The notes: generated from the sequence alone by a model not told the origin. A stretch of 64,000 nucleotides of DNA from Spirochaetia bacterium (GCA_963675665.1 OY776510.1:2560001-2624000), one strand, 5' to 3'. Numbered from the stretch's first letter, positions 41,122 to 62,832 are shown. A program made the numbers and translations.

Positions 41122-41195
41122 CGGGCTGTAGCGCAGGGGTTTAGCGTACATGTCTGGGGGACATGGGGTCGGCAGTTCAAATCTGCCCAGCCCGA
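41122..41195 (+). tRNA. tRNA-Pro (GGG), CCA not encoded; island integration site
   Basis: cgggctg/cagcccg acceptor stem; anticodon arm catgt-ctGGGgg-acatg; ggcagttcaaatctgcc T arm. Confidence 0.95.
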
Positions 41196-41196
41196 A
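41144..41196 (+). repeat. attL (3' part of tRNA-Pro)
   Basis: gcgtacatgtctgggggacatggggtcggcagttcaaatctgcccagcccgaa, identical to 57801-57853. Confidence 0.93.
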
Positions 41197-43439: not shown

Positions 43440-43547
43440 TTACTTTCTTTTCTTCTCACTCTTTTACGGTAAAAATAAACCGTTTTTAAAATTTGTTCTT
43501 CTTTTTACTATTTAGGAAAGAGATAAAAGTAAGCGGTAATTCTTACC

Positions 43548-45101: not shown

Positions 45102-45139
45102 ATAAGAATTTTACCACGGTTAAATTCGAGTGTGAAGCC

Positions 45140-45484
45140 CTAAACGCGGGAATAATTTAATTGCTTATGCGCTTTAAAGAAATCTATTCCATCAAGCAGC
45201 ATCTTCAACTCTTCGAACTTTATCTCCCTCGCGTCTTCTTCCGTTTCCGGCCAGGGGAACTTATTCTTTTCAAGTCTTTTCTGCCAAAGACAGAATCCGT
45301 TCCGATCCCAGTAAACGATTTTAAGCAGCTTTCTTTTGCCGTTGCAGAATAGAAACAGACTTTTTGAGAACGGGTCGTTCTGCATTATATTCTGAATCTG
45401 CAGGCTCAGACCGTTCACACCTTTTCGTAAATCAGTTTTCCCGGGTCTGACGAAGTAACGGTATTCTGAGTAATCGATAATCAT
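45140..45484 (-). CDS. tnpB: IS66 accessory protein TnpB
   Basis: TDLRKGVNGL, LKIVYWDRNGFCLWQKRLE. Confidence 0.95.
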   Translation of the reverse strand: MIIDYSEYRYFVRPGKTDLRKGVNGLSLQIQNIMQNDPFSKSLFLFCNGKRKLLKIVYWDRNGFCLWQKRLEKNKFPWPETEEDAREIKFEELKMLLDGIDFFKAHKQLNYSRV

Positions 45485-45780
45485 TCGAGCTCCCCGATTA
45501 CTTTAAGAACTGATTTCAGCCCGGCTTCATCAAATCCGGCAGTTATTGATATTAAGAACTTTTTGGTTTTTATAACTATTGGGGCGGCTGAGAAGATTCC
45601 ATTTGGTTTTATTTCAACAACTGAAGAACTTCCGGGTGCTTCCTGATTGCCAATAATTTTCCTGTTTTTATAAAACGTGTTTGGATGAATCCCGATCTCT
45701 TTACAGAACTCTAAAATCGTCTTACCGCTTTGCTGTTGTTGCTCAATGACTTCTTCCCAATTATTTATTACCTTTCGCAT
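45481..45780 (-). CDS. tnpA: IS66 accessory protein TnpA
   Basis: QQSGKTILEFCKEIGIHPNTFY HTH; first gene of the IS66 trio. Confidence 0.88.
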   Translation of the reverse strand: MRKVINNWEEVIEQQQQSGKTILEFCKEIGIHPNTFYKNRKIIGNQEAPGSSSVVEIKPNGIFSAAPIVIKTKKFLISITAGFDEAGLKSVLKVIGELE

Positions 45781-45857
45781 TTATTTCCTCCTGGTTAATA
45801 ATTCCGGAGGATAATACATTTTTATATTTTAGCAAGAAGGTAAGAATTACCGCTTAC

Positions 45858-46259: not shown

Positions 46260-46472
46260 CTAAGTTGAACTTTGTTCACATCTCGTAATAATCTCAGAAA
46301 CTGGAATCCCTATTGCTTGTGCTACTTTTTCGATTGTATCCAATGTAGGACTTATCGAGTCGTTTTCTAGCTTATAGAGATATCCCCTATTTAATCCAGT
46401 TAAATTTGCAAGCTTATTCTGAGATATACCCTTAGATTCACGAAAATAAACAATGGATTGCCCGATGTTCAT
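46260..46472 (-). CDS. XRE/Cro-CI HTH regulator
   Basis: IGQSIVYFRESKGISQNKLANLTGLNRGYLYKLEN..SPTLDTIEKVAQAIGI. Confidence 0.9.
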   Translation of the reverse strand: MNIGQSIVYFRESKGISQNKLANLTGLNRGYLYKLENDSISPTLDTIEKVAQAIGIPVSEIITRCEQSST

Positions 46473-46547
46473 GCTTGAAATATGAAGCATCAGGGAATAA
46501 AATATAATTGCTACATATTTGCAGCATGTCAAAAAGGAGGCATAGAA

Positions 46548-47084
46548 ATGAGAAAAAGTATTTTGGTTTTAATCGTCTTTTCATTTGGATTCGGTGCTTT
46601 TGCTGATGATACATTTGATACATTCTTTGAAACTGGACGCGTGCATTATACAGATATAGACGCTTTTACAGATGAAGAAACAAAAGTAGCTATGTTATGC
46701 AATATTGCAAATTTAACTGATATGGTAATAGGAACGATATATGTCAGAAAAAGTAAAAATTCATCAACAGAAGTATTCTTTACAGGCTCTCCAGAATTTC
46801 TAAATAATATATTAGGGACTCCACCAGTACTTCTATCAGAAAATGATCTATCAATAATGTATAGATTTGATAAAGCTCCAACAATAACAACAAATGGATG
46901 GTTAAATATTGATGGAACTGCTATTTTTCTGCCACAAAAAGAGGTATCTAAATTCTTACGTGGATTCTCGAAGTATAGCATATTACGGATTCGCTTAAAA
47001 ACTATTTCTGGGGAGGATATGGATATTACATATTCTGATATAGGTGCATTTGTTGAAGATTTAGAAGCAATAGGTCTTCAATAG
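46548..47084 (+). CDS. Exported hypothetical protein
   Basis: AGGAGG RBS; signal peptide MRKSILVLIVFSFGFGAFA. Confidence 0.8.
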   Translation: MRKSILVLIVFSFGFGAFADDTFDTFFETGRVHYTDIDAFTDEETKVAMLCNIANLTDMVIGTIYVRKSKNSSTEVFFTGSPEFLNNILGTPPVLLSENDLSIMYRFDKAPTITTNGWLNIDGTAIFLPQKEVSKFLRGFSKYSILRIRLKTISGEDMDITYSDIGAFVEDLEAIGLQ

Positions 47085-47168: not shown

Positions 47169-48245
47169 CTATTCAATTAGCAAAGAACATTGCGAGAGAT
47201 TGTTAGATTTCTTCTTGTACTCATCCCATGGTAAGAAATCATTAATCTTCTTATTACTACTTATTTGATGATGTAAATCTGAAATATGTGATCTTATTCG
47301 TGATTTTTGATATGACTCAGTAGTTGATTTTGAGATTACTTCATTTAATTTGATTTCAGTAAGCCCATTATCAACTGCGAAATTCAATCCCATCATTTCC
47401 ATAGCTCTACGAAACTCTTTTAATGAAAGAGATTCAGCAAGAATAAGATTATTGAGAAAAAGCATAGCATCAAAACCACTCTTTATATTACCAAACGATG
47501 AATCAGCTTCAATTTCTCGAATAAACTTTTGGTTTTGCTTAATCCAGATATCTTTAATATTCTTCCAGTTAGTTAGATTTGAGAAATTACCAACTTTTTC
47601 CTTTCTACAGATTGAATGCCTATGAATACGATATTCTACTCTTAGAAAATTTTTTCCAATAGAATAATCTTTCAATTGAATATGTTTGCTTTTATCATAT
47701 AAGGTAAAGCTTCGGCTTTTATTGCCCCACTTGATTCCATTATAACGATAAAATTCACTTCTCGAAGTTAAACGCATTCTGTCAAAGAAAAACAGATCAG
47801 ATAGATTTTCTATCAGAAGACAAGGAGCAAAAGATAATTTAAAGTCACAGAAAATATCTAAACGATTAATTTTTAACTCATAAATATCAACATTTAGTAG
47901 AAGTTTAATACATAGAGATTTCAGATATGAGAAAAGAGAAACAGATGAATGAGAATAGAAAAAATGAACATTGATGGGAGAATTAATACGAGGAACATTA
48001 CCCATAAAGTATAAACCAGTTCCATTCATCCAAACTTCCCATTCTGTTTCAGGATCTCTGTAATTTGCTTGAAAGTAGTGAGCTTTCAGTGAAGATAAAT
48101 CTCTACTCGCAGAGATTTTAGCTTTTGAATTCCAATGTTTTGATATTGGTTCAACATTATACCCAGGAAAATACAATTTAATTGTATCAATTCCAATGTG
48201 CTCGCTAATCACAGATAATTTTTTTATTCTATTCTTCTCTAACAT
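47169..48245 (-). CDS. Putative rolling-circle replication initiator (phage/plasmid gene II/X or Rep_trans-like)
   Basis: GIDTIKL, INRLDIFCDF, TLYDKS, LRVEYR motifs; GAAGGAG RBS before ATG 48245. Confidence 0.7.
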   Translation of the reverse strand: MLEKNRIKKLSVISEHIGIDTIKLYFPGYNVEPISKHWNSKAKISASRDLSSLKAHYFQANYRDPETEWEVWMNGTGLYFMGNVPRINSPINVHFFYSHSSVSLFSYLKSLCIKLLLNVDIYELKINRLDIFCDFKLSFAPCLLIENLSDLFFFDRMRLTSRSEFYRYNGIKWGNKSRSFTLYDKSKHIQLKDYSIGKNFLRVEYRIHRHSICRKEKVGNFSNLTNWKNIKDIWIKQNQKFIREIEADSSFGNIKSGFDAMLFLNNLILAESLSLKEFRRAMEMMGLNFAVDNGLTEIKLNEVISKSTTESYQKSRIRSHISDLHHQISSNKKINDFLPWDEYKKKSNNLSQCSLLIE

Positions 48246-48379
48246 TGCTATAACTCCTTCATCTAAAATGTTAGATTTGCATTTTTTGTCATTATTAAAG
48301 GTTATTACATAGACACTAAGTCGAATAAAAACAATGAATAATGCTTTTTTTGATCCGATAAAAGAAATAATCAAGCAAT

Positions 48380-48586
48380 TCATTTGACTAACCATAATTG
48401 GCGATCTGAATGATACATTTTATTATTATCCTTCAGCCATTCTTTAATCTCTTCTTTGATAAATAGACGTCTACTCCCAAATTGAACGAATGGGATTTTC
48501 CTAGATGCCGTATACTTGTAGATCGTTGAACATGATATCCCTGTCAATTCTGAGAGTTCCTTTACCGATAGGTAAATCTTTTTCAT
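48380..48586 (-). CDS. Excisionase-like HTH (HTH_17) protein
   Basis: YLSVKELSELTGISCSTIYKY..RKIPFVQFGSRRLF..EIKEWL. Confidence 0.9.
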   Translation of the reverse strand: MKKIYLSVKELSELTGISCSTIYKYTASRKIPFVQFGSRRLFIKEEIKEWLKDNNKMYHSDRQLWLVK

Positions 48587-48716
48587 TTTTTTCTCCTTAC
48601 TAATTAGATGAGAGATAGAACAAAAAGCTTATTTTATCTGTAAGCGGTAATTCTTACCTTCTTGCTAAAATATAAAAATGTATTATCCTCCGGAATTATT
48701 AACCAGGAGGAAATAA

Positions 48717-49016
48717 ATGCGAAAGGTAATAAATAATTGGGAAGAAGTCATTGAGCAACAACAGCAAAGCGGTAAGACGATTTTAGAGTTCTGTAAAGAG
48801 ATCGGGATTCATCCAAACACGTTTTATAAAAACAGGAAAATTATTGGCAATCAGGAAGCACCCGGAAGTTCTTCAGTTGTTGAAATAAAACCAAATGGAA
48901 TCTTCTCAGCCGCCCCAATAGTTATAAAAACCAAAAAGTTCTTAATATCAATAACTGCCGGATTTGATGAAGCCGGGCTGAAATCAGTTCTTAAAGTAAT
49001 CGGGGAGCTCGAATGA
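48717..49016 (+). CDS. tnpA: IS66 accessory protein TnpA
   Basis: Protein identical to 45481-45780. Confidence 0.88.
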   Translation: MRKVINNWEEVIEQQQQSGKTILEFCKEIGIHPNTFYKNRKIIGNQEAPGSSSVVEIKPNGIFSAAPIVIKTKKFLISITAGFDEAGLKSVLKVIGELE

Positions 49017-49357
49017 TTATCGATTACTCAGAATACCGTTACTTCGTCAGACCCGGGAAAACTGATTTACGAAAAGGTGTGAACGGTCTGAGCCTGCAGA
49101 TTCAGAATATAATGCAGAACGACCCGTTCTCAAAAAGTCTGTTTCTATTCTGCAACGGCAAAAGAAAGCTGCTTAAAATCGTTTACTGGGATCGGAACGG
49201 ATTCTGTCTTTGGCAGAAAAGACTTGAAAAGAATAAGTTCCCCTGGCCGGAAACGGAAGAAGACGCGAGGGAGATAAAGTTCGAAGAGTTGAAGATGCTG
49301 CTTGATGGAATAGATTTCTTTAAAGCGCATAAGCAATTAAATTATTCCCGCGTTTAG
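49013..49357 (+). CDS. tnpB: IS66 accessory protein TnpB
   Basis: Protein identical to 45140-45484. Confidence 0.95.
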   Translation: MIIDYSEYRYFVRPGKTDLRKGVNGLSLQIQNIMQNDPFSKSLFLFCNGKRKLLKIVYWDRNGFCLWQKRLEKNKFPWPETEEDAREIKFEELKMLLDGIDFFKAHKQLNYSRV

Positions 49358-49395
49358 GGCTTCACACTCGAATTTAACCGTGGTAAAATTCTTAT

Positions 49396-50949
49396 GTGAG
49401 TACTGAAGCCTTGCTTAACGAAATTGCTCAACTCAAACAAACAGTCCAAAATCAGGATAATCAGATTACCGAATTGAAAGAACTGGTACACCTCCTGCAG
49501 ACTCTTCACTTCGGAACAAAATCTGAGAAACTTACCAGTGAAGATAAGAAGCAGGCGTCCCTTTTCAACGAAGCAGAAGATTCCGCATTTGAGCAGCAGG
49601 ATGAAATAGAATCAGAAACCCTTGAAGTAAAAGCCCACACAAAAACAGTTCGAAAGAACTCGGGAAGAAAAGCGCTTTCTGAAGACCTGCCTCGCGAGAT
49701 TGTTGAATACGATATCGATGAAGAAGATAAAACCTGTGCCTGTGGTACCGAGAAGGTTTGTATAGGTGAAGATGTATCTGAACGACTCTGCATCGTTCCT
49801 GCGAAAGTAGTCGTCAGACGTGAGATAAAGAAAAAATATGTCTGCCGAAATTGTGAAGGAACAACTGATGATTCATCCGGAGTACAGACAGCAGAAGGGA
49901 TTAAACACCTCATTTCCGGAAGTATTGCCGATGAAAGCCTGCTTGCATGGATTATAAATGAGAAGTTTGAATATGCGCTGCCGTTTTATCGACAGAGTAA
50001 GAGGTTGAATGCGATAGGTGCGGATATTCCACGTGCAACACTGAGCACATTGGCAATTAAATGCGCTGAAAGATGCAAGCCGCTATATGAACTGCTTAAA
50101 GATAATATTAAAAACGGGCCTGTAATAAACGCAGATGAGACTCGGGTACAGGTTTTGAAAGAAAAAGGCCGTAAAGCACAGGATAAATCCTGGATGTGGG
50201 TATTTCTCGGGGGTAAGCCTGATAAGAAATCGGTCGTATTCCAGTATGAAACAAGCCGCTCTCATAAAGTTCCGTATGACTTTCTTCAAGAATATTCCGG
50301 CTGGCTGCAGACTGATGATTATGAGGCTTATCATACTGCATTGAAAAAACTAAGCGATGAAGGGAATAAGTCCATTCGGCATGTTTTGTGTTGGGCGCAT
50401 GCCCGCAGATATTTCTACAAGTATTGGGAACTGTCTAAATCTCCGGATGTAAAACAGATACTCGAATTGATTAAGAAACTTTTTGAGCTTGAAGATTTGA
50501 GAGCTGATTTTTCTAAAAAGGGGTTTCATAAAAAGCGAGCGAACAGGTCTTCTCCGATTTTGAAATCGTTATTTGAACTACTGACAAAATATGCGGCTGA
50601 AACACCTCCGACACTTGCCTTCGGAAAAGCTATTGCTTATACGCTGGATAATTGGAAGCAGTTAAACTTGTATTTGGAAGACCCGCTACTTACGCCGTCC
50701 AACAACATTGCCGAAAACGCAATCCGGCCTTTTGTGATTGGCAGGAAGAATTGGTTGTTTTCTGATACAGAACACGGCGCCGAATCTTCAGCAATTTTGT
50801 ACAGCCTTGTTGAATCAGCTAAAATGCAGAACCTCTCGGTCTATGATTATTTCTACTACGTTTTCAGACAGCTTCCAAATTGCAAAACACCGGCTGATTA
50901 TGAAGCACTGCTTCCGTTCAACCTGACTCCTGGGCTGATTAAGGCATAG
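49396..50949 (+). CDS. tnpC: IS66 transposase TnpC
   Basis: Protein identical to 43548-45101. Confidence 0.96.
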   Translation: MSTEALLNEIAQLKQTVQNQDNQITELKELVHLLQTLHFGTKSEKLTSEDKKQASLFNEAEDSAFEQQDEIESETLEVKAHTKTVRKNSGRKALSEDLPREIVEYDIDEEDKTCACGTEKVCIGEDVSERLCIVPAKVVVRREIKKKYVCRNCEGTTDDSSGVQTAEGIKHLISGSIADESLLAWIINEKFEYALPFYRQSKRLNAIGADIPRATLSTLAIKCAERCKPLYELLKDNIKNGPVINADETRVQVLKEKGRKAQDKSWMWVFLGGKPDKKSVVFQYETSRSHKVPYDFLQEYSGWLQTDDYEAYHTALKKLSDEGNKSIRHVLCWAHARRYFYKYWELSKSPDVKQILELIKKLFELEDLRADFSKKGFHKKRANRSSPILKSLFELLTKYAAETPPTLAFGKAIAYTLDNWKQLNLYLEDPLLTPSNNIAENAIRPFVIGRKNWLFSDTEHGAESSAILYSLVESAKMQNLSVYDYFYYVFRQLPNCKTPADYEALLPFNLTPGLIKA

Positions 50950-51008
50950 GGTAAGAATTACCGCTTACCCTGGGCTGATTAAGGCATAGGGTAAGAATTA
51001 CCGCTTAC
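50929..51008 (+). repeat. Tandem 40-bp duplication of the IS66 right end
   Basis: cctgggctgattaaggcatagggtaagaattaccgcttac x2. Confidence 0.9.
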
Positions 51009-51248
51009 ATTGAAACCATCTGTTTCTTTTGTGGCAAAGAATTGAAGGATAATTGTAAAGATATTGGTGGTGTAGTTTATTGGCACCGAAGTGATAAAAG
51101 CATTGCTTTACATCAATGTTGTGCAGAAGAGCTGGCTATACATCTTATTAAAGATGCTCGAACATTAGTTTCTAAAACAGGAATGCGATGTAAATTGCAA
51201 CCAACTGAAAAACGAGATGTCAGTTATTCTACCCATTATCATGGTTAA
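51009..51248 (+). pseudogene. 3' fragment of the IS66-disrupted zinc-finger gene
   Basis: Starts with duplicated attgaaac, then ICFFCGKELK...HQCCAEEL...; in frame with 45858-45919. Confidence 0.8.
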
Positions 51249-51284
51249 ACCTGATTCTATTATCTGGATTGGTGCACATGTTAT

Positions 51285-53198
51285 TTACCAAAAGAGATTA
51301 TTATATCCTTTTCTATCCATTGCAATTCGAAGTCTTTTGCACTTATCCCACCAACTATATATTGGCATCTCTGGAAGATGATGCTCAATTTTTCTCCATA
51401 GATTGTAATCATATCTATTCTTCTTGATTTCCTCATACACAGGGAAAAAGCATATTCTTAGTAATTTGTTAGAAACAATGTATGAGTTACTAATTATTAT
51501 TGGGAAAAAGAAATATGATAATTTTCTCTTTTCTTCGATGGTAAGTGAATAATCATCGATTTCTTCAAGATTATTAACCCAAGGTTCAATACCAGATTCA
51601 AGAATAGTTGAACTATAAGGATCAAGTGATTCTATAATTTTTAAAAAAACTGGCAATTGGATCGTATTTTGATTCTTAATCCAATTCAACGTAATATCAT
51701 GATCTTGCTTGCAAATATTTATCCAGCTTATCTTATTCTGAGCGGAATTGTCTGTAATTATTTTCAGCACAATTGGAACTGAATCAGAGCCAAATAAATC
51801 AAAAACAGCAGAATCTAAAGTTTCATTGCTGTTTACTATGATATTATGTATATATTTAAGCTTTTTATCATAATTCATTTCATCTGCATTTACACAGTTA
51901 AGTATTTCAATTTGAAAATCTTTACCTTTTTGCCAAAGCTTTTTATCAAAGATTAGATCATTATTTAAGGAAACTAAAACATTACAAATGCCAATATCGT
52001 ATTCAGAAAATGTTGATAATTTCTCAACTGTAACAATTTTTGCAAAATGTACTAATATCTTTTCTCCAATCCTATTCAATTCACTAGAAATAAGATCCCT
52101 AAATATAGTACGACATTTTTCAATTTTATTTATAAAAAGATCCTCAATTATATTTTTTATTGTATCAATTGAATAATTGTAGTCTTCTATATTTCTATCA
52201 GTGCATATTGATTTCAACATTGATTCAATTGTGTCTTTAGATAACCAATGTGCAACCGATCCTTCATAAACCTTCTGAATTAAATATATAACAAATTCTC
52301 CACCTGCTTCATTGCCAAAGATTGATAAAATTTCTTTATATAATTCTATAGAATTAATATTTCTGTTAAGAAAAATCTTATTGTATAAATCATATAATTT
52401 AAAGCCTGAATTTTTACTTTTAAGATTAAATTCATTTATGAAAGTGAAAAAATTATTATCTCCAGTAAAATACTGAGATTTCCAGTTTGGGATTAAATCC
52501 ATAAAAGATAAAGCATCATTTATTTGAACCTCATATAGGTTTTTATCAGCTCTTAGAATATGTTTTACAAGTCTTTCTGGCACAGCTTGAATAGAAAAGG
52601 GTTTATTATCAATTTTTCTATTTGATAATGATGCAGTACAAAATGAAAAATTTGAATAAACAGATTTATTTTGGTTTACTAAAAAAGCCCATATTTCTCT
52701 GATAAAATGATTACCAGTGAAAGTTTTAAATATAGCTGGCTTGTTATTGAAATAGTATGAGAATAAAACAATTGCCAGTGAATCATTGTCTAAAAAATCA
52801 TAATCAGAATATGTAATTGAGTTATCATTAACAGAAATTTTTTTTGAATATTGTTCGAACGAGTTATTGTCCATAGGCCTTTGGAATAGTTCTTCTAATA
52901 ATGAATAATTGCTAAAGTATTTAATATCCTCAAAATTAATCAACAGTGTATGGGTCCAAACACATCCTGGTCTTTTCATCTCACTCGCATACCAAGTTTT
53001 TGCTATTGCATAACACCACTCTTCGTTAAGTGGATATCCAGTATAATAAGATAAATAATTATTGCTTACTTCAGAACCAGATAAGTCACTTAAGACTGAC
53101 ATAATCCTAGAAGAACTTTTAGATAATTTAATAGAACTAGATAATAGATGATGTCCATTTGAATAGCCATGTAATGTTTGGTTGATTTCTTTATTCAT
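51285..53198 (-). CDS. GTPase-associated protein 1-like (GAP1-N1 domain plus helical region)
   Basis: QTLHGYSNGHHLL, SDLSG, YYTGYPL, AKTWYASEMKRPGCVWTHTLLI; C-terminal WDKCKRLR; 4-bp overlap with GTPase gene. Confidence 0.78.
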   Translation of the reverse strand: MNKEINQTLHGYSNGHHLLSSSIKLSKSSSRIMSVLSDLSGSEVSNNYLSYYTGYPLNEEWCYAIAKTWYASEMKRPGCVWTHTLLINFEDIKYFSNYSLLEELFQRPMDNNSFEQYSKKISVNDNSITYSDYDFLDNDSLAIVLFSYYFNNKPAIFKTFTGNHFIREIWAFLVNQNKSVYSNFSFCTASLSNRKIDNKPFSIQAVPERLVKHILRADKNLYEVQINDALSFMDLIPNWKSQYFTGDNNFFTFINEFNLKSKNSGFKLYDLYNKIFLNRNINSIELYKEILSIFGNEAGGEFVIYLIQKVYEGSVAHWLSKDTIESMLKSICTDRNIEDYNYSIDTIKNIIEDLFINKIEKCRTIFRDLISSELNRIGEKILVHFAKIVTVEKLSTFSEYDIGICNVLVSLNNDLIFDKKLWQKGKDFQIEILNCVNADEMNYDKKLKYIHNIIVNSNETLDSAVFDLFGSDSVPIVLKIITDNSAQNKISWINICKQDHDITLNWIKNQNTIQLPVFLKIIESLDPYSSTILESGIEPWVNNLEEIDDYSLTIEEKRKLSYFFFPIIISNSYIVSNKLLRICFFPVYEEIKKNRYDYNLWRKIEHHLPEMPIYSWWDKCKRLRIAMDRKGYNNLFW

Positions 53199-54037
53199 TC
53201 TGAAACCTTTGTATCGTAAATAAATTGTTGTATTGGTTTAGAAATATCATTGTCCTGTTTCCCATTTGAATCGATTATTTTTATCCTATCGACTGGCTCA
53301 TCAATATCGAGTAAAGTTTGATCATCAAGTTCTCCACCTTGGGCGCTTAATCCAAAATATTGAATTTCATATTTTCTACTGTTGGTTGTAAGAAATTGCC
53401 AAAGTAATGGAAGCTTATCCTTTATAAAGGTTTCCGGTTTAGTTTTATTATTAATATTTAAAACAGTGTCATAGGCAGATACAATTATAAATAATTTAAA
53501 TTGAAAATTTGTTTTTATTTCTAAAACAAATTGAATCAAATCAATTAATTGTACTTGTGCTGGATCTGTTTTTGGATCGCGTTCTACAATGTTTTCAAAA
53601 TCAATATCATCATCATGATTTTTTAGATTTAGCTCAGAAATAAGAGTGGTGTCATTTACTTTTTTGGGGTTGATGAATACAAAGATGCCAGAACTCTTTT
53701 TAATATAGTCAAAATGTTCTTTTTTCATTAAGCGATCTATATACTGTTGTTGAAATGTTTCTCCAGATAGATCAGGGAAGTATAATGTCGATTGTCTATT
53801 TTCATTATCGACTAAAGTAATTGAGATTTCTGATTGTTCAGTATTCGATGTCCTAGGGACAGGCTCTAAATTTGCCCATTTTGTTGCGATTGATGATAGA
53901 TAGCTTTGATCTCCTACCAATTCTCCAAGTTTGAAGTGCTTAGATTGGCCACTATCAAGAAAATAATAAAGTGCTGCTAAAAATGTTGTTTTTCCAGCTT
54001 CTGGTAATCCTAAGATGAAAACACTTTCATTACTCAT
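53195..54037 (-). CDS. TRAFAC-class GTPase (double-GTPase system, DO-GTPase-like)
   Basis: G1 GLPEAGKTT, G2 PRT, G3 DLSGE, variant G4 SAYD, G5 LSAQG. Confidence 0.85.
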   Translation of the reverse strand: MSNESVFILGLPEAGKTTFLAALYYFLDSGQSKHFKLGELVGDQSYLSSIATKWANLEPVPRTSNTEQSEISITLVDNENRQSTLYFPDLSGETFQQQYIDRLMKKEHFDYIKKSSGIFVFINPKKVNDTTLISELNLKNHDDDIDFENIVERDPKTDPAQVQLIDLIQFVLEIKTNFQFKLFIIVSAYDTVLNINNKTKPETFIKDKLPLLWQFLTTNSRKYEIQYFGLSAQGGELDDQTLLDIDEPVDRIKIIDSNGKQDNDISKPIQQFIYDTKVSE

Positions 54038-55064
54038 ATCTTTTATCCCTATAAGAAAATCTATCAAACTCAGACAGATTTTCAGCTTGAAAAGATTGTG
54101 CTTTGAGTGACCATATTGTATTCTTTACAGGTGCTGTCCAATTTTTTAATAGTTCATTTAATCCTGTACCTATTGCACAATTTTCAGTATCTATAGGCAT
54201 AGCTGCAATATTAAAACATTCTATGCTCAGAAACCGCTCTTGATATTTTTCTCTAATTTCACTTATAAGATTACCTATTTTATTTTTTATAATAGGATCT
54301 TCATTGCTTTTTTCTATAATCAAGTCATATTTTGTTACTATCAAATTTATTTTTGTATTATAGTTAATTAAGCCTGCACCTAAGAACGTGTCAATTAATT
54401 TTTTCCCACTAAAAATCTCACCATTTCGCTTTTGTTTCGTGACTAATAATTCTCCATCAAAGACCACTGCAAAAACAGATGCACTTTTAACAATGCCAAA
54501 ATCTTCCTTAGCCAAGTCTGCATTCCCAATAACTTCCTTGTAATCTTCGCCAGAAAAGTCAGATAAAAGAAAATTGTAGAATTTTTCTCGTTTTTTACAA
54601 AAGATACCAAGATGCAAAATAGCATCAGAGACTCCACGTTGAGTTTTGGGTGGTTTAGGAGATGCTTTCTTCGAAATAATTCTAGCATTAAAAGCTCTTT
54701 GCTCAAATCCTAACAGAGTTTTTGACCAATTAAACAAAAAAGAATCAATTGAGTTTTTCTGGAAGATATGATAAAAAGTTGTAATTAAAGTTGTTTTACC
54801 ACAACCCGATGGGCCTGCTATTATTACAATATCAGTTTTAAATTCTGATGTGATATCGTAAGTTTCTGATTCATTTAGCGCTTTACCAAGAGAAAGCTCA
54901 ATGACACCATCTAATTCTGTTTCTTCAATCTCTATTTCTTTAAAATCTCTATTGTCTTCTTTTTCAATAAGTGATGAATCTTTAATTGAGTCTATAGAGT
55001 CTGAAATCTTAAAACCATCTTCAGAATTGGAACTTATATCTATGTCTTCAACTTCATCTGTCAT
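54030..55064 (-). CDS. TRAFAC-class GTPase (double-GTPase system, DO-GTPase-like)
   Basis: Acidic N-terminal extension; G1 GPSGCGKTT, SKTLLGFE, G2 PKT, G3 DFSGE, G4 TKYD. Confidence 0.85.
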   Translation of the reverse strand: MTDEVEDIDISSNSEDGFKISDSIDSIKDSSLIEKEDNRDFKEIEIEETELDGVIELSLGKALNESETYDITSEFKTDIVIIAGPSGCGKTTLITTFYHIFQKNSIDSFLFNWSKTLLGFEQRAFNARIISKKASPKPPKTQRGVSDAILHLGIFCKKREKFYNFLLSDFSGEDYKEVIGNADLAKEDFGIVKSASVFAVVFDGELLVTKQKRNGEIFSGKKLIDTFLGAGLINYNTKINLIVTKYDLIIEKSNEDPIIKNKIGNLISEIREKYQERFLSIECFNIAAMPIDTENCAIGTGLNELLKNWTAPVKNTIWSLKAQSFQAENLSEFDRFSYRDKRYE

Positions 55065-55077
55065 CTCTTAACCTTTG

Positions 55078-56193
55078 TTATTCTGCCATTGCTCTTCTTG
55101 AAAGACATTCAAGATAGAATTGATTTGAAAAATCAAGATACGAATATTTTATTTTATCAATTTTCCGTATAGAATGATTATTAAAAACTTCTTTCCAATT
55201 TGCTCCGTTTGAAACTTGTAGTGAAGAATAGATCGCGTGAAAAATTGGAGTAATATTACCAAATTGTGATGGACTAAAATCTTTTGTCAATTCATGTTTC
55301 CAATCTTTGTCAAGGCCATTAACAGCATCGTATAGAGATAATACTTCATCAGGGGCTTCAATAATCGATTTTAATAATCTGTGTAGAACAGACTGAGCCG
55401 CATATGGACCTGGCATAATAGAAACTAGATCTGAAAGTTCTTTTCCAATTGTAATGGGTATCGACTCTTTTGTTAATTTGGAGAAATGTTTTTCATGATC
55501 TCGACTATATTCTCCTGTAAGCCACCATAAGATTTGGGAATCCTCATAATAAATAAGTTGTTTTTCTTCTTTATTTATTATTTCATTATTAAGACTTGAG
55601 AATAGGTTTTCAATTTTGTCTACAAGTTTCATATTGATACTTTGCCAATTATCATCTCCCCATTCATAATCTATTGGCTCCTCACCTTCTACTGCTGTTT
55701 CTTCAGCTGAAACTTCTGAGATATATTTACGTATATCACTAAAATCAATACTAATGTTTTGCTGATCCTTTAAAGGCATTGATCTGTTTTTACGTGCTGA
55801 ATCTTTGAATGTTTGTAGAATAAAACTGGATATTTCAGGATGTGGTGTCTCTTTGATTAAAAACGACGCAGTAATAAATGGTAAAATAATTTTAAAAGTT
55901 ACTTCTTTAACATTTATCAATTTAGTAAGCGCATAGCCCGCTAACAGTGAAATTTCTTCCTTTTTTCTTCTAGAGAATGCCTGATCATATTCTCTGAAAG
56001 AATCGATAAATATTGAATAGCAGTCTTCATCAATGATATCCATTTGAAAATATAGATGGATCAAATTGATTATTGCTATATCTGATATTGATTCATCTAA
56101 ATATTTCTGAATACCGGAGATTCTGTTTTCAATAAAATCATTATCTATTTTGGGATTTACTTTATAATAGATCTCAGTTAAATCTAATTCCAT
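55078..56193 (-). CDS. GTPase-associated system all-helical protein (GASH-like)
   Basis: Helical composition; EDSQILWWLTGEYS motif; sits between phosphoesterase and GTPases. Confidence 0.72.
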   Translation of the reverse strand: MELDLTEIYYKVNPKIDNDFIENRISGIQKYLDESISDIAIINLIHLYFQMDIIDEDCYSIFIDSFREYDQAFSRRKKEEISLLAGYALTKLINVKEVTFKIILPFITASFLIKETPHPEISSFILQTFKDSARKNRSMPLKDQQNISIDFSDIRKYISEVSAEETAVEGEEPIDYEWGDDNWQSINMKLVDKIENLFSSLNNEIINKEEKQLIYYEDSQILWWLTGEYSRDHEKHFSKLTKESIPITIGKELSDLVSIMPGPYAAQSVLHRLLKSIIEAPDEVLSLYDAVNGLDKDWKHELTKDFSPSQFGNITPIFHAIYSSLQVSNGANWKEVFNNHSIRKIDKIKYSYLDFSNQFYLECLSRRAMAE

Positions 56194-56196
56194 ATC

Positions 56197-57492
56197 TTAC
56201 TCCATTATTTTTATAATTGAATCATGAAAAGATTTGATATCATCTCTATCCCTTAAATCTTCAAGGATACGTTCTATAATTGATTGATGCTCGATACCTT
56301 CATCCGATTCAGTGATCAACCCAAAATCGGAAAGAAGTTTGTGCCTAAGGACATAGGATAAACTAAAAAAATCATATGCTATTTCTCGATCACTTATTGA
56401 TTTTAAATCTGCCATGATATCCTTTTCTACAGTAGTATCATCATCTTCTTCTTTTATGCGTGATTTCTGTTTATTACTTGATTCTATTTTAATACCATTC
56501 TTGCATTGATGCTTTAAAAAAAATTGTTTAAATTCATTGCCTCCACAACTGTTATAATCAGGCTCAAAAGATTGAGAATCTTTCGAAAATAATCGAGGGA
56601 AAACCTTCACTACTAAATTGCTCTTTCCTTCATCGCAAATAGTGGATATTGTAAGCCAATTATATCTTGGAATCCATTCTTTTTCAGAACGACTAGGATG
56701 AGTGGCTCCAGCACCAATGATTAAATTGTCATTAACTATATTGAGACTGTGAACATGCTTATGACCATATAGCTGAATTTTTATCCTTTGATTGATTTTA
56801 TTGATAATTTGATGTCTATCAACAAGGCACTCATGAGGATGATGACATAGTGATAGATATGTAACATTATCTTCGTTCTTTGGGATTTGATTTGCACCAA
56901 TTATCATTCTCCGTTCTAAAGTATCATTATGATTTGAAATAATAACAGAATTCAGCCCAATAATTCTTAAGTATGTGTTGTCGTTCAACGTAAAATCTTC
57001 TGTCCATACTGGTTTATCAACACTGATATTGCAACGAAATAAAGAAGCAAATGAATTGTATGAATGAATATGTTCAAACAGACTATTATTAAAGATAGTA
57101 TCCCTATGATATTTTACTATTTGCTCGTCGATATTCGTAGCGGTTTCAATCTTTTCTTGAATTGTAAGAAAGCCTTCAGAACTCATAGGTATATTTCGAT
57201 CAACATCATGATTTCCTGGTACACAAAATACTTGCGTTTTATTGATTTTCAACTTATCACAGAGTTCAAATAGAAAAACTTTAGCAGTGTCGTACTCAGT
57301 AGAATTAGCACTAAATGAAATATCCCCACAAACAAAGATTGCGTCTGGTGTACCAATTTTTGAAATAACGTTTTGATCTATATCTCTTAATAGCTCATTT
57401 CTTATATCTTCATCCAGATCATGTGGATCTCCACTATTCTTGTCAAAATGAATATCAGCAAGATGAATGAAGGATAGAAAATTTTTGTTCAT
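56197..57492 (-). CDS. Calcineurin-like metallophosphoesterase with C-terminal helical adaptor-like domain
   Basis: HLADIH, CGDI, PGNHD, CHHP, YGHKH; charged linker, then a ~65-aa helical domain. Confidence 0.88.
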   Translation of the reverse strand: MNKNFLSFIHLADIHFDKNSGDPHDLDEDIRNELLRDIDQNVISKIGTPDAIFVCGDISFSANSTEYDTAKVFLFELCDKLKINKTQVFCVPGNHDVDRNIPMSSEGFLTIQEKIETATNIDEQIVKYHRDTIFNNSLFEHIHSYNSFASLFRCNISVDKPVWTEDFTLNDNTYLRIIGLNSVIISNHNDTLERRMIIGANQIPKNEDNVTYLSLCHHPHECLVDRHQIINKINQRIKIQLYGHKHVHSLNIVNDNLIIGAGATHPSRSEKEWIPRYNWLTISTICDEGKSNLVVKVFPRLFSKDSQSFEPDYNSCGGNEFKQFFLKHQCKNGIKIESSNKQKSRIKEEDDDTTVEKDIMADLKSISDREIAYDFFSLSYVLRHKLLSDFGLITESDEGIEHQSIIERILEDLRDRDDIKSFHDSIIKIME

Positions 57493-57800: not shown

Positions 57801-57853
57801 GCGTACATGTCTGGGGGACATGGGGTCGGCAGTTCAAATCTGCCCAGCCCGAA
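57801..57853 (+). repeat. attR (duplicated 3' part of tRNA-Pro)
   Basis: Exact 53-bp copy of 41144-41196; lacks the tRNA 5' end. Confidence 0.93.
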
Positions 57854-58187: not shown

Positions 58188-59297
58188 ATGCAGAAAAAAC
58201 CCTATTCATTATGGAAAAGGCGCCTCAATTCGGGGCGCTTTGTCTATTATGTACGTTTCAGGCTTGAAAACGGAGCCTGGAGCACCGCAAAAAGTTCAGG
58301 TCAAACCAAAAAAACTACGGCTGAAGCCTGGGCAATCGAATACCTTAAATCAGGTCAAATAGTACTAAAAGAAAACATTCGCTTCAGTGATTTTGCGGAC
58401 GGATTCTTTGACTATGACGGCCCATTCATCAAATCCCAGCTTTACCGGGGTAAGACCATCGGCCGGCGGCATGCTGAAAACCAGAATGCCGAGGTTAAGA
58501 ATCACCTTACTCCTGTCATCGGAGATCTCAAACTCTCAAAGATCGACAGCGAGGTTATTGAGGAGCTTGTAATCGGAATGTCCGCGGCCGGTAAGGCCTC
58601 CGGTACTATTAATCATGTTCTGATTACCTTGCGGACAATCCTCCAGTATGCCTATAAGAAAAAGTACATACAACACATGCCGATAATTGAGATGATTCCG
58701 AGAAAACAGAAGGACCGCGGAATACTGAGTGTGGAAGAGGTAAAGGCTTTCTTCGCCCAGGAGTGGGCCGATAAGCGTTACTATGCCTTCAACCTCATAG
58801 CGGCCACCACAGGCATGCGTATGGGTGAAATAAGGGCCCTGCAGCGAAAAGCAGTCTTCGATGATTATCTTGATGTCTCAGTCTCCTGGGAGAAGGGGCA
58901 CGGACTAAAGTGTACCAAGACCGGCCGAAGCAGGTATATCCCGATACCTAAACGGACAAAGACGGCCCTTGAAGATGTAATGCTTATGACACCGTTTAAG
59001 GAACCCGAAGATTTTGTTTTTGTCGGTCGCAAGCGCGAAGCGCCCCTTGATACCCACATCATCCAGTTAAACTATTATAAAGCACTAAAAGGCATAGGCA
59101 TTGATAAAGAGGCCAGGCAGACCCGGAATATAACCTTTCATTCCTGGCGGCACTTTTTCAACTCGCTGCTTATTAACTCAAGGGTGCCTATCCCTAAGGT
59201 GCAAACTATCACCGGGCATTCAACCGATCGCATGACCGAGAACTACTTTCACGCGGACGAATATTCGGATGTTTTAAAGATTGCCGGGGAGATTTGA
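58188..59297 (+). CDS. Tyrosine recombinase/integrase (second element)
   Basis: TTGMRMGE, CTKTG, FHSWRH, TGH, ENY; clearly homologous to 41320-42462. Confidence 0.95.
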   Translation: MQKKPYSLWKRRLNSGRFVYYVRFRLENGAWSTAKSSGQTKKTTAEAWAIEYLKSGQIVLKENIRFSDFADGFFDYDGPFIKSQLYRGKTIGRRHAENQNAEVKNHLTPVIGDLKLSKIDSEVIEELVIGMSAAGKASGTINHVLITLRTILQYAYKKKYIQHMPIIEMIPRKQKDRGILSVEEVKAFFAQEWADKRYYAFNLIAATTGMRMGEIRALQRKAVFDDYLDVSVSWEKGHGLKCTKTGRSRYIPIPKRTKTALEDVMLMTPFKEPEDFVFVGRKREAPLDTHIIQLNYYKALKGIGIDKEARQTRNITFHSWRHFFNSLLINSRVPIPKVQTITGHSTDRMTENYFHADEYSDVLKIAGEI

Positions 59298-59440: not shown

Positions 59441-60211
59441 ATGGCAGAATTATCTTTGGACAAAGTTTTAAATGAAGGGATAGTCGTGGATCGCAGATGG
59501 CTAAGCTCAAAAGGATTTGAGCGTACTGCTGTTGATTATTATGTCAGGGCAGGCAAGCTTATAGCCTGTGGGTATGGTGCTTACCGTAAACCGGGTCCGC
59601 CTTTGAAATGGCAAAACATAGTATATTCATTGGGACGACTCGGTGTGGAGCTGCATGTCGGAAACATATCAGCACTGTCATATAACGGATATGAACATTT
59701 TCTCCATCTGAATGCGGCAAAGGAGATCACTGTATACAGTCAGCAGCAACTGCCTTCCTGGACCATGGGCCTTTCAGATGTTTCTTTTAAACGGGTTGCT
59801 AATAATCCTTTTGAAACGGATACAAAAGTAGGATTAGAGTATGTTCCATTCGGGACCTGGGATTGGCCCATACCGTATGCTTCTACAGAAAGAGCTTTTG
59901 TAGAATTATTCAGCTCATTAAAAACAAGCGATGATATAAGGTCGGCGATGATGATGTTTGAAAGTGCCGCAACTTTGCGCCCCAAAACAATACAGATCTT
60001 GCTTGAAGAATGTAAGCAAGTAAAAGCGAAGCGTCTTTTCCTTTGGATGGGGAAACAATTGAAACATTCCTGGTATGAATTGATAGATCAGAAAAGAATC
60101 GACCTCGGAACAGGGAAGAGGCAAATAATAAAAAACGGTGTCTTGGATAAAGAGTTTCTAATCACTGTACCTAAGGAGTTGTCTCATGGACAGGCAGAAC
60201 CCCTATTTTAA
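59441..60211 (+). CDS. abiEi: Type IV TA antitoxin AbiEi-family protein
   Basis: N-terminal wHTH (GYGAYRK), HVGNISAL, STERAFVE, LRPKTIQILLEECKQVKAKRLFL, IDLGTGKR. Confidence 0.88.
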   Translation: MAELSLDKVLNEGIVVDRRWLSSKGFERTAVDYYVRAGKLIACGYGAYRKPGPPLKWQNIVYSLGRLGVELHVGNISALSYNGYEHFLHLNAAKEITVYSQQQLPSWTMGLSDVSFKRVANNPFETDTKVGLEYVPFGTWDWPIPYASTERAFVELFSSLKTSDDIRSAMMMFESAATLRPKTIQILLEECKQVKAKRLFLWMGKQLKHSWYELIDQKRIDLGTGKRQIIKNGVLDKEFLITVPKELSHGQAEPLF

Positions 60212-61100
60212 TCAAGTTAGATTGCTGGTGAATGTATTGCCGGCAATCGCTGAATCAACATGTTTCGCATTAAAGGGCGGTACCGCTATAAACCTATTTT
60301 TAAGAAATGTTCCTCGCTTATCGGTTGATATAGATCTTGTGTATGTTCTGATTAAAGAAAGAGATTTTTCTCTAAATGAGATTACTGATGAGCTTTTAAA
60401 AATCGCATCACGAATAAAGAAGATCATCCCTAATGCTGAAATCCAATACTCATACATTAATAAAACAAAATTTATAACAAAATTACTCGTTAGAAGTGAA
60501 CGCTCCATAGTGAAAATTGAGCTCTCTCCAGTTCTGCGCGGAACTGTCTACGAGCCTAAGACGAAAAGAATATCCCGGGATGCTGAGGAGCTATTTGGGT
60601 TTGCTGAGGTGCCGGTTGTTTCATTTGAAGATTTATTTGCCGGTAAAATTATTGCTGCTTTGGATAGGCAACATCCACGGGATCTCTTTGATATCAAGTT
60701 TCTACTTCAATCTGAGGGTATAACGCATTCGTTAAAAGAAGCATTTATTGTTTATCTCATTTCACATAATCGTAGGTTTATAGAAATCCTGAATCCGTCA
60801 TTGCTGAATTTATCACAATTATATCAAAATGAATTTACAGGAATGACGAACGAGAAGATAAGTATTGAAGAACTTGAATTGGTCAGAACTGAACTCATAG
60901 AAAAAGTGAATGGATTACTTGAAGATGAGGATAAAACATTTTTGATTAATTTTAAAAAAGGGAATCCGGATTGGGATTATTTCTCTGTACCACATATCAG
61001 GGAACTCCCGGCAGTAAAGTGGAAGTTGAATAACTTGCAGCAAATGGATAGTGCCGAAAGGTCAAAGATGATCCAAAATCTAATAGATTTTTTTAGTTAA
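60186..61100 (+). CDS. abiEii: Type IV TA toxin AbiEii-family nucleotidyltransferase
   Basis: FALKGGTAINLF, PRLSVDIDL, KIE, GKIIAALDRQHPRDLFD. Confidence 0.93.
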   Translation: MDRQNPYFNQVRLLVNVLPAIAESTCFALKGGTAINLFLRNVPRLSVDIDLVYVLIKERDFSLNEITDELLKIASRIKKIIPNAEIQYSYINKTKFITKLLVRSERSIVKIELSPVLRGTVYEPKTKRISRDAEELFGFAEVPVVSFEDLFAGKIIAALDRQHPRDLFDIKFLLQSEGITHSLKEAFIVYLISHNRRFIEILNPSLLNLSQLYQNEFTGMTNEKISIEELELVRTELIEKVNGLLEDEDKTFLINFKKGNPDWDYFSVPHIRELPAVKWKLNNLQQMDSAERSKMIQNLIDFFS

Positions 61101-61494: not shown

Positions 61495-62598
61495 TCATGC
61501 GACTTCTGTTCTACCTACCATCATTCCCCAAATAAATCCTGATAATTCTCTGGCAACTGCCGTAACAGTTTTCTGAGGGCATACCCCTCTACGAATCATC
61601 CTGAAATATTTCTTACTCAACCTTCTGCCGGCTTTATCAGCATAAGCTATTGTTTCAGCAGATTGTCCTTTCCTTCTCGCTGTCAGTCGTTTCGATGGCG
61701 AATACCTTTGGTAATGCCAGCTTGATTCCACTAACAGCCGTCGTAGCCTGGAGTTGCCGGCCTTCGTAATCCCGCCAAGCTTCCGGCCCTCTCCGCTTGA
61801 GTATTCTGACGGCACAAGTCCAAGATACGCCATGAAGGATTCCGCTTTTTTAAATCTTCTGAAATCTCCTATCTCGCATACAAATGTTAATGCTGTTAAT
61901 GTCTCTATACCTTTGAAACATCGAAGCCGGGATACCCTTTCTTTATATCTGTCTTCAGCAGCAATCTCTTCTATTTTTTCCTGCAACCGTTCAATCTTTT
62001 CCTCTAATTCCACAATCGCAAGATAATATTCTTTTAAAACTTCTTTATGCATTACCTGTTCAAACTGCAAGTTTTTCAACCAGGTTCGATGCGCCCCTGT
62101 CCAGTACTTTTTCCCAATATCATATTTCTTCCCGTTCCTTAGCAGAAACTGTAAGAGCCTCTGTTTCTGTTTCCTCAAATCAATTTTCATATCGTTACAC
62201 ATCCTCATGTAATCACGAACTGATTCATCTGTGCGTGTCGGTATATTCACCGGTGTTATTTCCTGATTCCTTAATGCTCTGGCTAATTTGACTGCATCCC
62301 TCTTGTCTGTCTTTATTCGGTCTCCGGGTTTCCTCGGCAATAATGATGGTGCTGCTACGTAACAGATAATTCCCATATCTTCAAGTAATCTATAAAGTGT
62401 AAATCCTGTAGGGCCTGCTTCGTAACAACACAGAATATTTTCTCCATTCTCTTTAAGTCGCTTGAAGAATCTTTTAATATTTCCGGGTTCGTTCCTGAGC
62501 TCTCTTTCAAACTCAGGATTCTGATAATTATCTCTGAATACCGCTACTGCGATTGATTCCTTGTGGACATCCATCCCTACATAAATTACACTATTCAT
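61495..62598 (-). CDS. IS110-family transposase/recombinase
   Basis: YVGMDVHK, YEAGPTG, KTDKRDA (DEDD); FKGIE, YLGLVPSEYSSG, ITKAGN. Confidence 0.95.
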   Translation of the reverse strand: MNSVIYVGMDVHKESIAVAVFRDNYQNPEFERELRNEPGNIKRFFKRLKENGENILCCYEAGPTGFTLYRLLEDMGIICYVAAPSLLPRKPGDRIKTDKRDAVKLARALRNQEITPVNIPTRTDESVRDYMRMCNDMKIDLRKQKQRLLQFLLRNGKKYDIGKKYWTGAHRTWLKNLQFEQVMHKEVLKEYYLAIVELEEKIERLQEKIEEIAAEDRYKERVSRLRCFKGIETLTALTFVCEIGDFRRFKKAESFMAYLGLVPSEYSSGEGRKLGGITKAGNSRLRRLLVESSWHYQRYSPSKRLTARRKGQSAETIAYADKAGRRLSKKYFRMIRRGVCPQKTVTAVARELSGFIWGMMVGRTEVA

Positions 62599-62832
62599 AG
62601 TGGCCTCCGTTCCTTTGTATGTGGCGTGTCTGCGCTTTGCCATTAGCCATTGTGTAGGCTAATCCACGATTTTGCAAACACGGCGGTCACTTCATATTGT
62701 CTAAAGTACTCCGTACTTTTTGTTATTTTATCATTTGGTAGTTTGAAAATATCTTTTCAAACTACACCCCCAGACACCTGCATCCATGCAGGAATTTCTT
62801 ATAGGAGGAATGATAAAAAGTCTTCATGAGCT

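Follow-up and report, generated by a model that had tools for sequence, protein, structure and literature searches.

We analysed a 64,000-nucleotide stretch of the genome of a Spirochaetia bacterium (GCA_963675665.1, OY776510.1:2560001-2624000; the window) and found in it a five-gene cassette that encodes two paralogous GTPases (DO-GTPase1 and DO-GTPase2), a GAP1 protein, an all-helical GASH protein and a phosphoesterase effector carrying a GAAD adaptor. We read this double-GTPase cassette as the main cargo of a 16.7-kb island at a tRNA-Pro gene in a spirochaete and judge from its context, with moderate confidence, that it most likely serves defence against phages or other invading DNA. The locus is the commonest published form of a GAP1-N1 system and an ordinary instance of its family.

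The genes, called as open reading frames (ORFs), form a minus-strand run at positions 51285-57492 (6.2 kb, Table 1) and are co-directional, AT-rich and closely packed. Reading from the effector to GAP1, the first two junctions are gaps of 3 and 13 bp, and the last two are overlaps of 8 and 4 bp. The 8-bp value is obtained with the ATG at 54037 as the start of DO-GTPase1; the mechanically called ORF opens at a TTG at 54067. An initial annotation, made from the sequence of the window, had described five coupled, AT-rich genes in one direction, and the ORF coordinates and all four junction sizes are exactly as it claimed. Its estimate that the operon lies about 300 bp from the right-hand attachment (att) site also held, as we measured 308 bp between the operon start codon and attR.

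To establish the identity of each protein, we searched with Pfam profiles, and all five proteins exceed the gathering cut-offs of the expected families. The effector carries Metallophos (E 2.8e-8; 34.9 bits, cut-off 21.5) and GAAD (E 1.1e-5; 25.9 bits, cut-off 23.6) on a single polypeptide. The second protein matches GASH (PF19994, E 3.2e-17; 63.2 bits against a cut-off of 27). With the same cut-off of 27 bits, DO-GTPase2 matches PF19993 (E 3e-33, 115.8 bits) and DO-GTPase1 matches PF19975 (E 6.1e-65, 219.6 bits); the latter is a single-copy gene in the genome. GAP1, whose gene overlaps the DO-GTPase1 stop by 4 bp, matches GAP1-N1 (PF20012, E 4.1e-32) over residues 5-104. Thus, the family names proposed earlier (Metallophos/GAAD, GASH, both DO-GTPases and GAP1-N1) are correct for every gene. 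The motif HGY...TW...RPGCVWTH, which the initial annotation had picked out, is found in the 637-residue GAP1 protein and is mostly invariant or nearly so across 46 relatives. The invariant residues of GAP1-N1 in this alignment are Q7, G11, Y12, G15, H16, S22, D38, Y51, W69, A71, R76, G78, W81 and P108. Profile comparison of GASH with GAP1 by hhalign gave a probability of 0.5%, and hence no relation between these two proteins.

Inspection of the alignments revealed that the catalytic motifs are conserved and present, so that the cassette, with its five open frames, is intact as had been supposed. In DO-GTPase1, the residues invariant among 30 relatives are G10, P12, G15-K16-T17, R62-T63, D89, G92-E93, S187-A188-x-D190 and S231-A232-Q233-G234-G235. 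The sole departure of the window protein from this alignment is a tyrosine in place of the near-invariant W189. The alignment of 44 relatives of DO-GTPase2 shows no variation at G89, T141, G172, K245 or D247 and at least 90% conservation at K90, T91, D169 and E173; together, these positions account for the P-loop GK[ST], a Thr, and the DxxGE and [ST]KxD motifs. The guanine motif is kept in NKxD-like form in DO-GTPase2, whereas the DO-GTPase1 family has SAWD. The Walker B glutamate is kept in both (PDLSGE in DO-GTPase1, DFSGE in DO-GTPase2). At its N-terminus, DO-GTPase2 has an acidic 75-residue extension, and no Cys occurs among the 83 residues ahead of the P-loop.

To get a broader picture of the cassette, we scanned one genome per species with a GTPase1 profile and assembled 80 related loci. 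The loci were picked by likeness to the window's GTPase1 and represent one branch of the family. The five families were located among their ORFs by phmmer, and then by profiles built from the first matches. The order effector-GASH-GTPase2-GTPase1-GAP1 is co-directional and unbroken at 65 of the 80 loci; at the remaining 15, a contig end truncates the locus or a gene is in pieces. By phmmer, GASH adjoins the effector gene in 78/80. The loci come from Bacillota, Pseudomonadota, Acidobacteriota, Verrucomicrobiota, Planctomycetota, Cyanobacteriota and others. This identical, intact gene order bears out the conserved operon that the initial annotation had anticipated, and its recurrence, like the five Pfam matches, exceeds what chance would give. 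No sixth conserved gene was found within 2 kb on either side of the 80 loci; the largest cluster of neighbours has members at 7/80, on mixed sides and strands. Database searches returned 373 relatives of DO-GTPase1 at E <= 0.001 among 1248 scored candidates, the named ones being mostly from Bacillota and the nearest 45% identical. When 1.84 billion representatives were searched with a profile of the GAP1 N-terminal half, 2412 clusters (50% identity) matched at E <= 0.001, of which 1728 also did so at E <= 1e-30.

GAP1-N1 systems are defined by GAP1, GASH and two DO-GTPase genes, with GAP1 downstream (Kaur, Burroughs, Iyer and Aravind 2020, eLife 9:e52696, PMC7159879; all statements about this paper refer to portions of its text and tables). 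The commonest effector there is a calcineurin phosphoesterase, and GAAD is frequent and predicted to couple the effector to GAP1. More generally, the effector is variable and is coupled by fusion, by EAD1 or by GAAD. The window shares with these systems the five families (PF19975, PF19993, PF20012, PF19994, PF19976), the position of GAP1 after a DO-GTPase, the calcineurin-type effector, GAAD and the Glu of DxxGE; it differs in having no SLATT partner and in the N-terminus of DO-GTPase2, which is taken up below. With the published GAP1-N2 systems it shares the core of DO-GTPase and GAP1. Their other features are absent here, namely fibronectin type III repeat proteins instead of GASH, membrane-associated components, tubulin, HSP70 or kinase partners, and an association with multicellularity. 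The initial annotation had associated GTPase-centred systems mainly with multicellular bacteria. For GAP1-N1 this is wrong, since 48 of 262 organisms are multicellular (P = 0.9998, no special association; PMC7159879, Table 1, section 28), and the statement applies only to the N2 subtype and to vWA-MoxR systems. The scheme of sensor, switch and effector is itself a published computational hypothesis from 2020 (PMC7159879).

The effector contains five calcineurin-like motifs (D13/H15, G56-D57, G93-N94-H95-D96, H217-H218 and G243-H244-x-H246), which are invariant across 25 relatives except that H95 is nearly invariant. Its phosphoesterase domain aligns with the NCBIfam models DS8_antiphage (E 1.4e-19) and DS9_1_antiphage (E 9.8e-19), and this domain alone aligns. 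Whole-protein membership is not reached, the scores being 69.4 bits against a cut-off of 790 for DS-8 (NF053861) and 67.5 against 420 for DS-9 (NF053862). In PADLOC, the effector matches PDLC00736, labelled 'Effector, Endonuclease' (E 1.2e-19), and PDC-S60 (E 5.9e-18). DS-8 (metallophosphatase-NACHT) and DS-9 (metallophosphatase plus HAD phosphatase) came from DefensePredictor; both protect E. coli against phage, and mutants of the phosphoesterase residues lose protection (portions of PMC13092281). The cassette resembles them in that a homologous catalytic domain is joined to an NTPase-type regulator. However, the likeness is at the domain level only, and the place of the fused NACHT or the HAD partner is taken here by a double TRAFAC GTPase plus GAP1 and GASH on separate polypeptides.

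We then asked what effectors the related loci encode, by scanning 37 of their 81 effector ORFs with Pfam. Metallophos was present in 25, while 12 have GAAD alone behind an unrecognised domain of about 240 residues (L023, L028, L029, L031, L033, L036, L037, L040, L041, L051, L053 and L064); GAAD was found in 34/37. The hosts of the GAAD-only effectors are Acidobacteriota, Verrucomicrobiota and Nitrospirota. Their N-terminal domain has no Pfam match, no PADLOC match (0/10) and no PDB relative by sequence. For the effector, for one GAAD-only effector and for profiles of the two GTPases, sequence searches of the PDB returned only P-loop-level or insignificant matches. In four of these loci, the DO-GTPase1 ORF has an extra region and measures 407-450 residues against the usual 285 or so (L040, 7863-9215; L051, 7977-9215; L053, 7971-9221; L064, 3554-4777).

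A quick maximum-likelihood tree of GTPase1, calculated from 77 rows (L006, L024 and L079 were left out as they have no effector ORF), placed the 12 GAAD-only loci in one clade (support 95). L041, which likewise carries the other domain, is sister, with support 100, to L045, whose effector was labelled Metallophos by a motif regular expression only and had no Pfam scan. Such labels are partly wrong on the tree (Pfam assigns L022 to Metallophos, and L049 is truncated), so we relied on the 12-row clade and the L041/L045 pair. This pattern suggests that the GAAD adaptor has stayed in place while the catalytic domain preceding it was replaced on more than one occasion. Effector swapping on a fixed adaptor is a pattern typical of conflict systems. 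In the same tree, the DO-GTPase1 rows of a Syntrophomonas metagenome-assembled genome (MAG; L008) and an Anaerovorax MAG (L009) are identical, which would reflect a very recent transfer or a binning artefact.

To examine the neighbourhoods of the cassette, we searched 145 flanking ORFs (greedy non-overlapping, at least 120 residues) from 17 related loci against PADLOC at E <= 1e-10. Matches were obtained for 18 of the 145, in 10 of the 17 loci, a count that comes with no random-locus control. Recognisable systems occur at seven loci and include JetD (Wadjet) with PDC-S13 and a UG31 reverse transcriptase (DRT), MkoC (Mokosh), PDC-S22/S02, PD-T4-6, restriction enzymes, an Old/AriA/GajA-like ATPase, and SIR2 with HerA. 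Relatives of the cassette thus sit in defence-rich neighbourhoods, which is indirect evidence for a role in defence.

We further characterized GAP1 by structure prediction. AlphaFold2 modelled the whole protein from a 46-row alignment with a predicted local distance difference test score (pLDDT) of 90.9 and a predicted template modelling score (pTM) of 0.78. The model is alpha/beta up to residue 230 or so, and the remainder is all-helical. Residues 1-265 alone gave pLDDT 89.4 and pTM 0.90. With the whole model, Foldseek found nothing at E <= 0.001, the helical part drawing only weak ARM/HEAT-like rows, and the VIA-align matches to the N-terminal part were longin domains, DENND1A and TagF (Z 6.1-7.2). 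With residues 1-265, the GEF (guanine nucleotide exchange factor) domain of DENND1A came top in Foldseek (E 1.8e-4 with probability 1.00, and 4.3e-4), and FLCN (4.5e-3), DENND1B (0.01) and DENND10 (0.015) came next. VIA-align of the same fragment against 48,161 chains agreed, with the caution that Z below 8 may mean a mere common arrangement: DENND1A was best (Z 7.6), its alignment covering 240 of the 265 residues at a root-mean-square deviation (rmsd) of 5.4. It was followed by an archaeal Roadblock-Longin protein (Z 6.9, 125 aligned, rmsd 3.6), DENND10 (Z 6.6; 229, 5.5), the Lst4 longin domain (Z 5.9; 114, 3.8), a GATOR1 subunit (Z 5.5; 119, 3.4), TagF (Z 5.3; 217, 5.2), C9orf72-SMCR8 (Z 5.2; 124, 3.7) and FNIP2 (Z 5.2; 122, 3.7). 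The top 15 rows are of longin, DENN or roadblock type throughout; eight rows reach Z 5, and rank 50 has fallen to Z 2.9. A likeness of the predicted fold of GAP1 residues 1-265 to a longin plus DENN-core module is probable, though modest. Longin-type GTPase activators use an arginine finger, and the invariant Arg of GAP1-N1 sits in a loop between two strands.

The predicted fold likens GAP1 to the eukaryotic DENN and longin regulators (DENND1A/B acting on Rab35, DENND10, FLCN-FNIP2, GATOR1 acting on Rag heterodimers, and C9orf72-SMCR8) and to bacterial TagF. With DENND1A, DENND10 and TagF, the alignment extends over 217-240 residues and takes in a longin-like sheet and an alpha/beta domain. 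GAP1 is moreover encoded beside a paralogous GTPase pair, as FLCN-FNIP2 and GATOR1 act on RagA/RagC. Unlike the DENN regulators, however, it has a helical C-terminal domain of about 400 residues with no DENN counterpart, it belongs to a mobile conflict cassette rather than to membrane traffic, its sequence has no detectable similarity to theirs, and its exchange or activating role is putative. The main text of Kaur et al. (PMC7159879) mentions longin, DENN and TagF zero times. We hypothesise that the N-terminal half of GAP1 docks on the DO-GTPases and regulates them. A complex prediction of the GTPase2 core, GTPase1 and GAP1(1-265) returned a score of 0.00 and a mark of 0.32, and is evidence neither way. 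It is conceivable, if doubtful, that GAP1 is a true prokaryotic DENN-type module with GEF or GTPase-activating (GAP) activity on a DO-GTPase heterodimer, an immune counterpart of longin/DENN control of Rag that would license a killing or starving phosphoesterase.

The same fold, together with two paralogous GTPases, could instead suggest a signalling pathway for stress or nutrients outside any conflict, analogous to a Rag heterodimer with its longin/DENN regulators, in which the phosphoesterase would degrade a second messenger. Metallophosphoesterases do include cyclic-nucleotide phosphodiesterases. But such a pathway is very unlikely here, as the distribution is extremely patchy: GAP1-N1 was found in 0/400 other Spirochaetota genomes sampled, and DO-GTPase1 reached the Pfam cut-off in 0/60 sampled relatives of the host (5 from the genus, 5 more from the family and 50 from the class). 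Foreign GC content, location on islands and plasmids, effector domains swapped between close relatives and defence-rich neighbourhoods are likewise unexpected for a housekeeping pathway.

For defence, the system could work as follows. The paralogous GTPases would form a heterodimeric nucleotide switch, consistent with the P-loop Lys/Thr and DxxGE of both and the [ST]KxD of GTPase2. GAP1 would dock on this switch by its N-terminal half and set or read its nucleotide state; the predicted fold suggests this because a longin plus DENN-core arrangement typifies exchange factors and activators of eukaryotic Rab, Arf and Rag proteins. The helical C-terminal part of GAP1, GASH or both may recognise a cue derived from the invader and retain the effector by way of GAAD, in keeping with the constancy of GAAD in relatives where the preceding catalytic domain is exchanged. 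Once triggered, the metallophosphoesterase would be freed or activated and would cut phosphoester bonds in nucleotides, nucleotide signals or nucleic acid. This would stop the infection or the infected cell, as the intact catalytic motifs and the requirement for the related domains of DS-8 and DS-9 in defence would allow.

The operon lies in an island of about 16.7 kb, since a pair of att repeats bounds a segment with an integrase next to the tRNA gene (Table 1). The 53-nt repeat occurs in two copies only in the 5.15-Mb genome. The island also contains two copies of an IS66-family insertion sequence (IS). The genome contains 13 members of this family, 3 of them at 100%, 3 at 97% and 7 at 78% identity, and the pair in the island is a secondary insertion of a host IS. 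The pair brackets a 2.8-kb segment and is formally composite-transposon-like. Between the copies lie a gene of the XRE-type helix-turn-helix class (46260-46532) and two ORFs without a Pfam match; the XRE-type gene stands head to head with the 200-residue one. In all, three island ORFs lack a Pfam match (42540-43439, 46482-47084 and 47169-48395; 299, 200 and 408 residues). At 50929-51008, the final 40 nt of IS66 copy 2, terminal inverted repeat included, are doubled as a perfect tandem. The second unit (50969-51008) ends 276 bp from the GAP1 stop codon. As no further gene is conserved beside the cassette in its relatives, the arrival of this copy near GAP1 probably removed no family member.

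Table 1. Features of the cassette, its island and the adjoining DNA, in window coordinates.
Feature	Position	Strand	Details
Effector gene	56197-57492	-	431 aa; calcineurin-like metallophosphoesterase (residues 7-247), linker, C-terminal GAAD adaptor (369-427)
GASH gene	55078-56193	-	371 aa; all-helical protein of GTPase-associated system
DO-GTPase2 gene	54030-55064	-	344 aa; P-loop GTPase
DO-GTPase1 gene	53195-54037	-	280 aa from ATG at 54037; P-loop GTPase paralogue
GAP1 gene	51285-53198	-	637 aa; predicted longin + alpha/beta N-terminal module (1 to ~230), C-terminal all-helical domain (~226-637)
tRNA-Pro(ggg)	41122-41195	+	ARAGORN; attL in its 3' part
attL/attR	41144-41196 and 57801-57853	+	Perfect 53-nt direct repeat; copies 100% identical; tRNA-Pro 3' part
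Island tyrosine integrase	41320-42462	+	Pfam Phage_integrase E 1.5e-15, Phage_int_M E 1.1e-8
IS66-family element, copy 1	43529-45857	-	Inverted repeat 100% complementary to copy 2; TnpA/TnpB/TnpC Pfam matches
IS66-family element, copy 2	48640-50968	+	2329 nt; 100% identical to copy 1 inverted
Second tyrosine integrase	58188-59297		Beyond attR; 33% identical to island integrase, E 5e-61
AbiEi, AbiEii	59441-60211, 60186-61100		Beyond attR, after second integrase
IS110-family transposase genes	61495-62643, 63021-63998	-, +	Beyond AbiE; second continues past window end

The initial annotation had counted the nearby AbiE module as support for a defence hotspot. This part of the claim needs correction, because the AbiE pair lies outside the island, past attR and behind a second integrase. 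The arrangement therefore points to an integration hotspot with tandem cargo, not to a single defence island. The second integrase and AbiE appear to have arrived in tandem at this tRNA-Pro gene, and a third att copy that would bound the AbiE segment was not found anywhere in the genome.

Relatives of the cassette are found on other mobile DNA. Tblastn with GTPase1 identified relatives on 27 plasmids (21 conjugative, 5 mobilizable, 1 non-mobilizable). In Klebsiella pneumoniae, one of the conjugative plasmids, of the IncF type (L095; NZ_CP060051.1, 17733-23853), has the identical five-gene order, flanked by ccdAB and, at the opposite end, by an Abi-family gene together with a TrlF-family ATPase; RefSeq labels one of its proteins 'GTPase-associated system all-helical protein GASH'. 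Viral records with a relative were limited to 1 IMG/VR contig and 1 phage record. The latter, a Leptospira LE1-like phage (L094; KF114878.1, 13374-20825), contains GTPase2-GTPase1-GAP1 (845 residues), followed by a phosphorylase-family gene and an integrase; a 420-residue ORF upstream does not match the GASH profile. The record represents a spirochaete version that has diverged and has another effector, and its carrier is a phage or a plasmid-prophage.

This constant placement on mobile or variable DNA (the integrase island, the plasmids and the Leptospira phage record), and the adjacency of the Klebsiella cassette to ccdAB, would also suit a module that serves the mobile element itself through addiction, stabilisation or inter-element competition. 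In such a module, a phosphoesterase toxin would be restrained by a GTPase/GAP1/GASH complex, and the cassette would keep hosts from losing their islands and plasmids or would shut out rival elements. However, five genes with two NTPases are much more elaborate than known addiction modules, and the neighbours of the relatives are often bona fide anti-phage systems. We regard service to the element as unlikely, while noting that it is hard to separate from defence because many defence systems ride such elements.

The host is a spirochaete, as had been presumed, since PolA of the window (12019-14853) is 79% identical to PolA of Spirochaetales MAGs. The cassette has a different composition from its host. 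GC content is 0.26-0.31 over 51001-57000, compared with about 0.42-0.53 in the chromosomal flank (33001-41000) and about 0.44 in the host. In the GTPase1 tree, the window protein falls inside a 23-row clade whose other 22 members are all from Bacillota (Shimodaira-Hasegawa-like approximate likelihood ratio test 100), on a branch so long (0.84) that the placement is not beyond doubt. The Bacillota-clade placement together with the low GC points to acquisition of the cassette from a low-GC donor. Spirochaetes are named among the commonest GAP1-N1 hosts (PMC7159879), and those in the published lists may be other lineages.

Several results weigh against the reading of the cassette as a defence system or against parts of its proposed working. 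The DENN likeness of GAP1 is modest, and the Pfam models for DENN, uDENN, longin and TagF match 0/46 GAP1 N-terminal halves even at E <= 10. One DO-GTPase is described with a characteristic N-terminal zinc ribbon (PMC7159879); contrary to this description, none is present in the window's DO-GTPase2, which has its acidic, Cys-free extension instead, or in its Bacillota-like clade. A C-x4-C-x7-C-x9/10-C motif precedes the P-loop in 29 of 77 relatives, mostly from Pseudomonadota and Cyanobacteriota with some Acidobacteriota, and the missing ribbon is treated here as a subclade difference that is no bar to GAP1-N1 membership. Recognition by defence databases is confined to the effector. In NCBIfam, the core proteins are unrecognised and the phosphoesterase domain is the sole match. 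PADLOC, which the initial annotation had offered as a check, is unsuited to it: DB 2.0 has no model for GASH or GAP1, the best match of DO-GTPase1 is mad3 at E 0.0055, none reaching 0.001, and a PADLOC run would miss the system because models of the core proteins are lacking. Predictions for the phosphoesterase substrate disagree, the nearest PADLOC label being an endonuclease and the family prediction of Kaur et al. a nucleotide phosphodiesterase, and sequence search of the PDB found no solved relative of this protein. In the flank survey, 7 of the 17 loci have no PADLOC match, again with no background control. Finally, the literature searched, with subscription-only papers outside it, contained no experimental work on, or solved structure of, any DO-GTPase/GAP1 component, in agreement with the earlier remark that no experimental mechanism is known.

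A scan for sigma-70-type promoters also gave no support, with 52 sites against 43.4 +/- 5.5 in shuffled sequences and 0 terminators. A search of sequencing runs listed no RNA run containing the sequence, and three DNA runs, all from one study. This promoter signal at the level of shuffles would fit an inert passenger, intact in sequence and silent or non-functional in the spirochaete after transfer from a Bacillota-like donor. The foreign composition, the long GTPase1 branch with its nearest relative at 45% identity, and the two strikes of host IS66 on the island are in line with such a history. Yet none of the five frames is interrupted, and W189Y in GTPase1 is the only change at a catalytic or family-invariant residue; the tight overlaps are preserved and the IS copies have stayed out of the operon. 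We give the passenger explanation the slimmest chance of those considered, and retain defence as the probable role of the cassette.

DO-GTPase/GAP1 systems form a sizeable family, predicted in 2020 to be regulated immune switches, to which the window adds an intact and compact 6.2-kb example in a clear mobile context. The comparison provides three handles on the family as a whole. First, in many phyla and also on conjugative plasmids, the five genes behave as a unit with sharp bounds. Second, effectors appear to trade their catalytic domain while keeping GAAD as the adaptor. Third, structure prediction likens the N-terminal half of GAP1 to the DENN and longin regulators of eukaryotic small GTPases, which offers a concrete and falsifiable mechanism. 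If GAP1 is a true DENN-type module, a cassette of this kind would possibly be a relative of the stock from which the eukaryotic longin/DENN-Rag arrangement arose.

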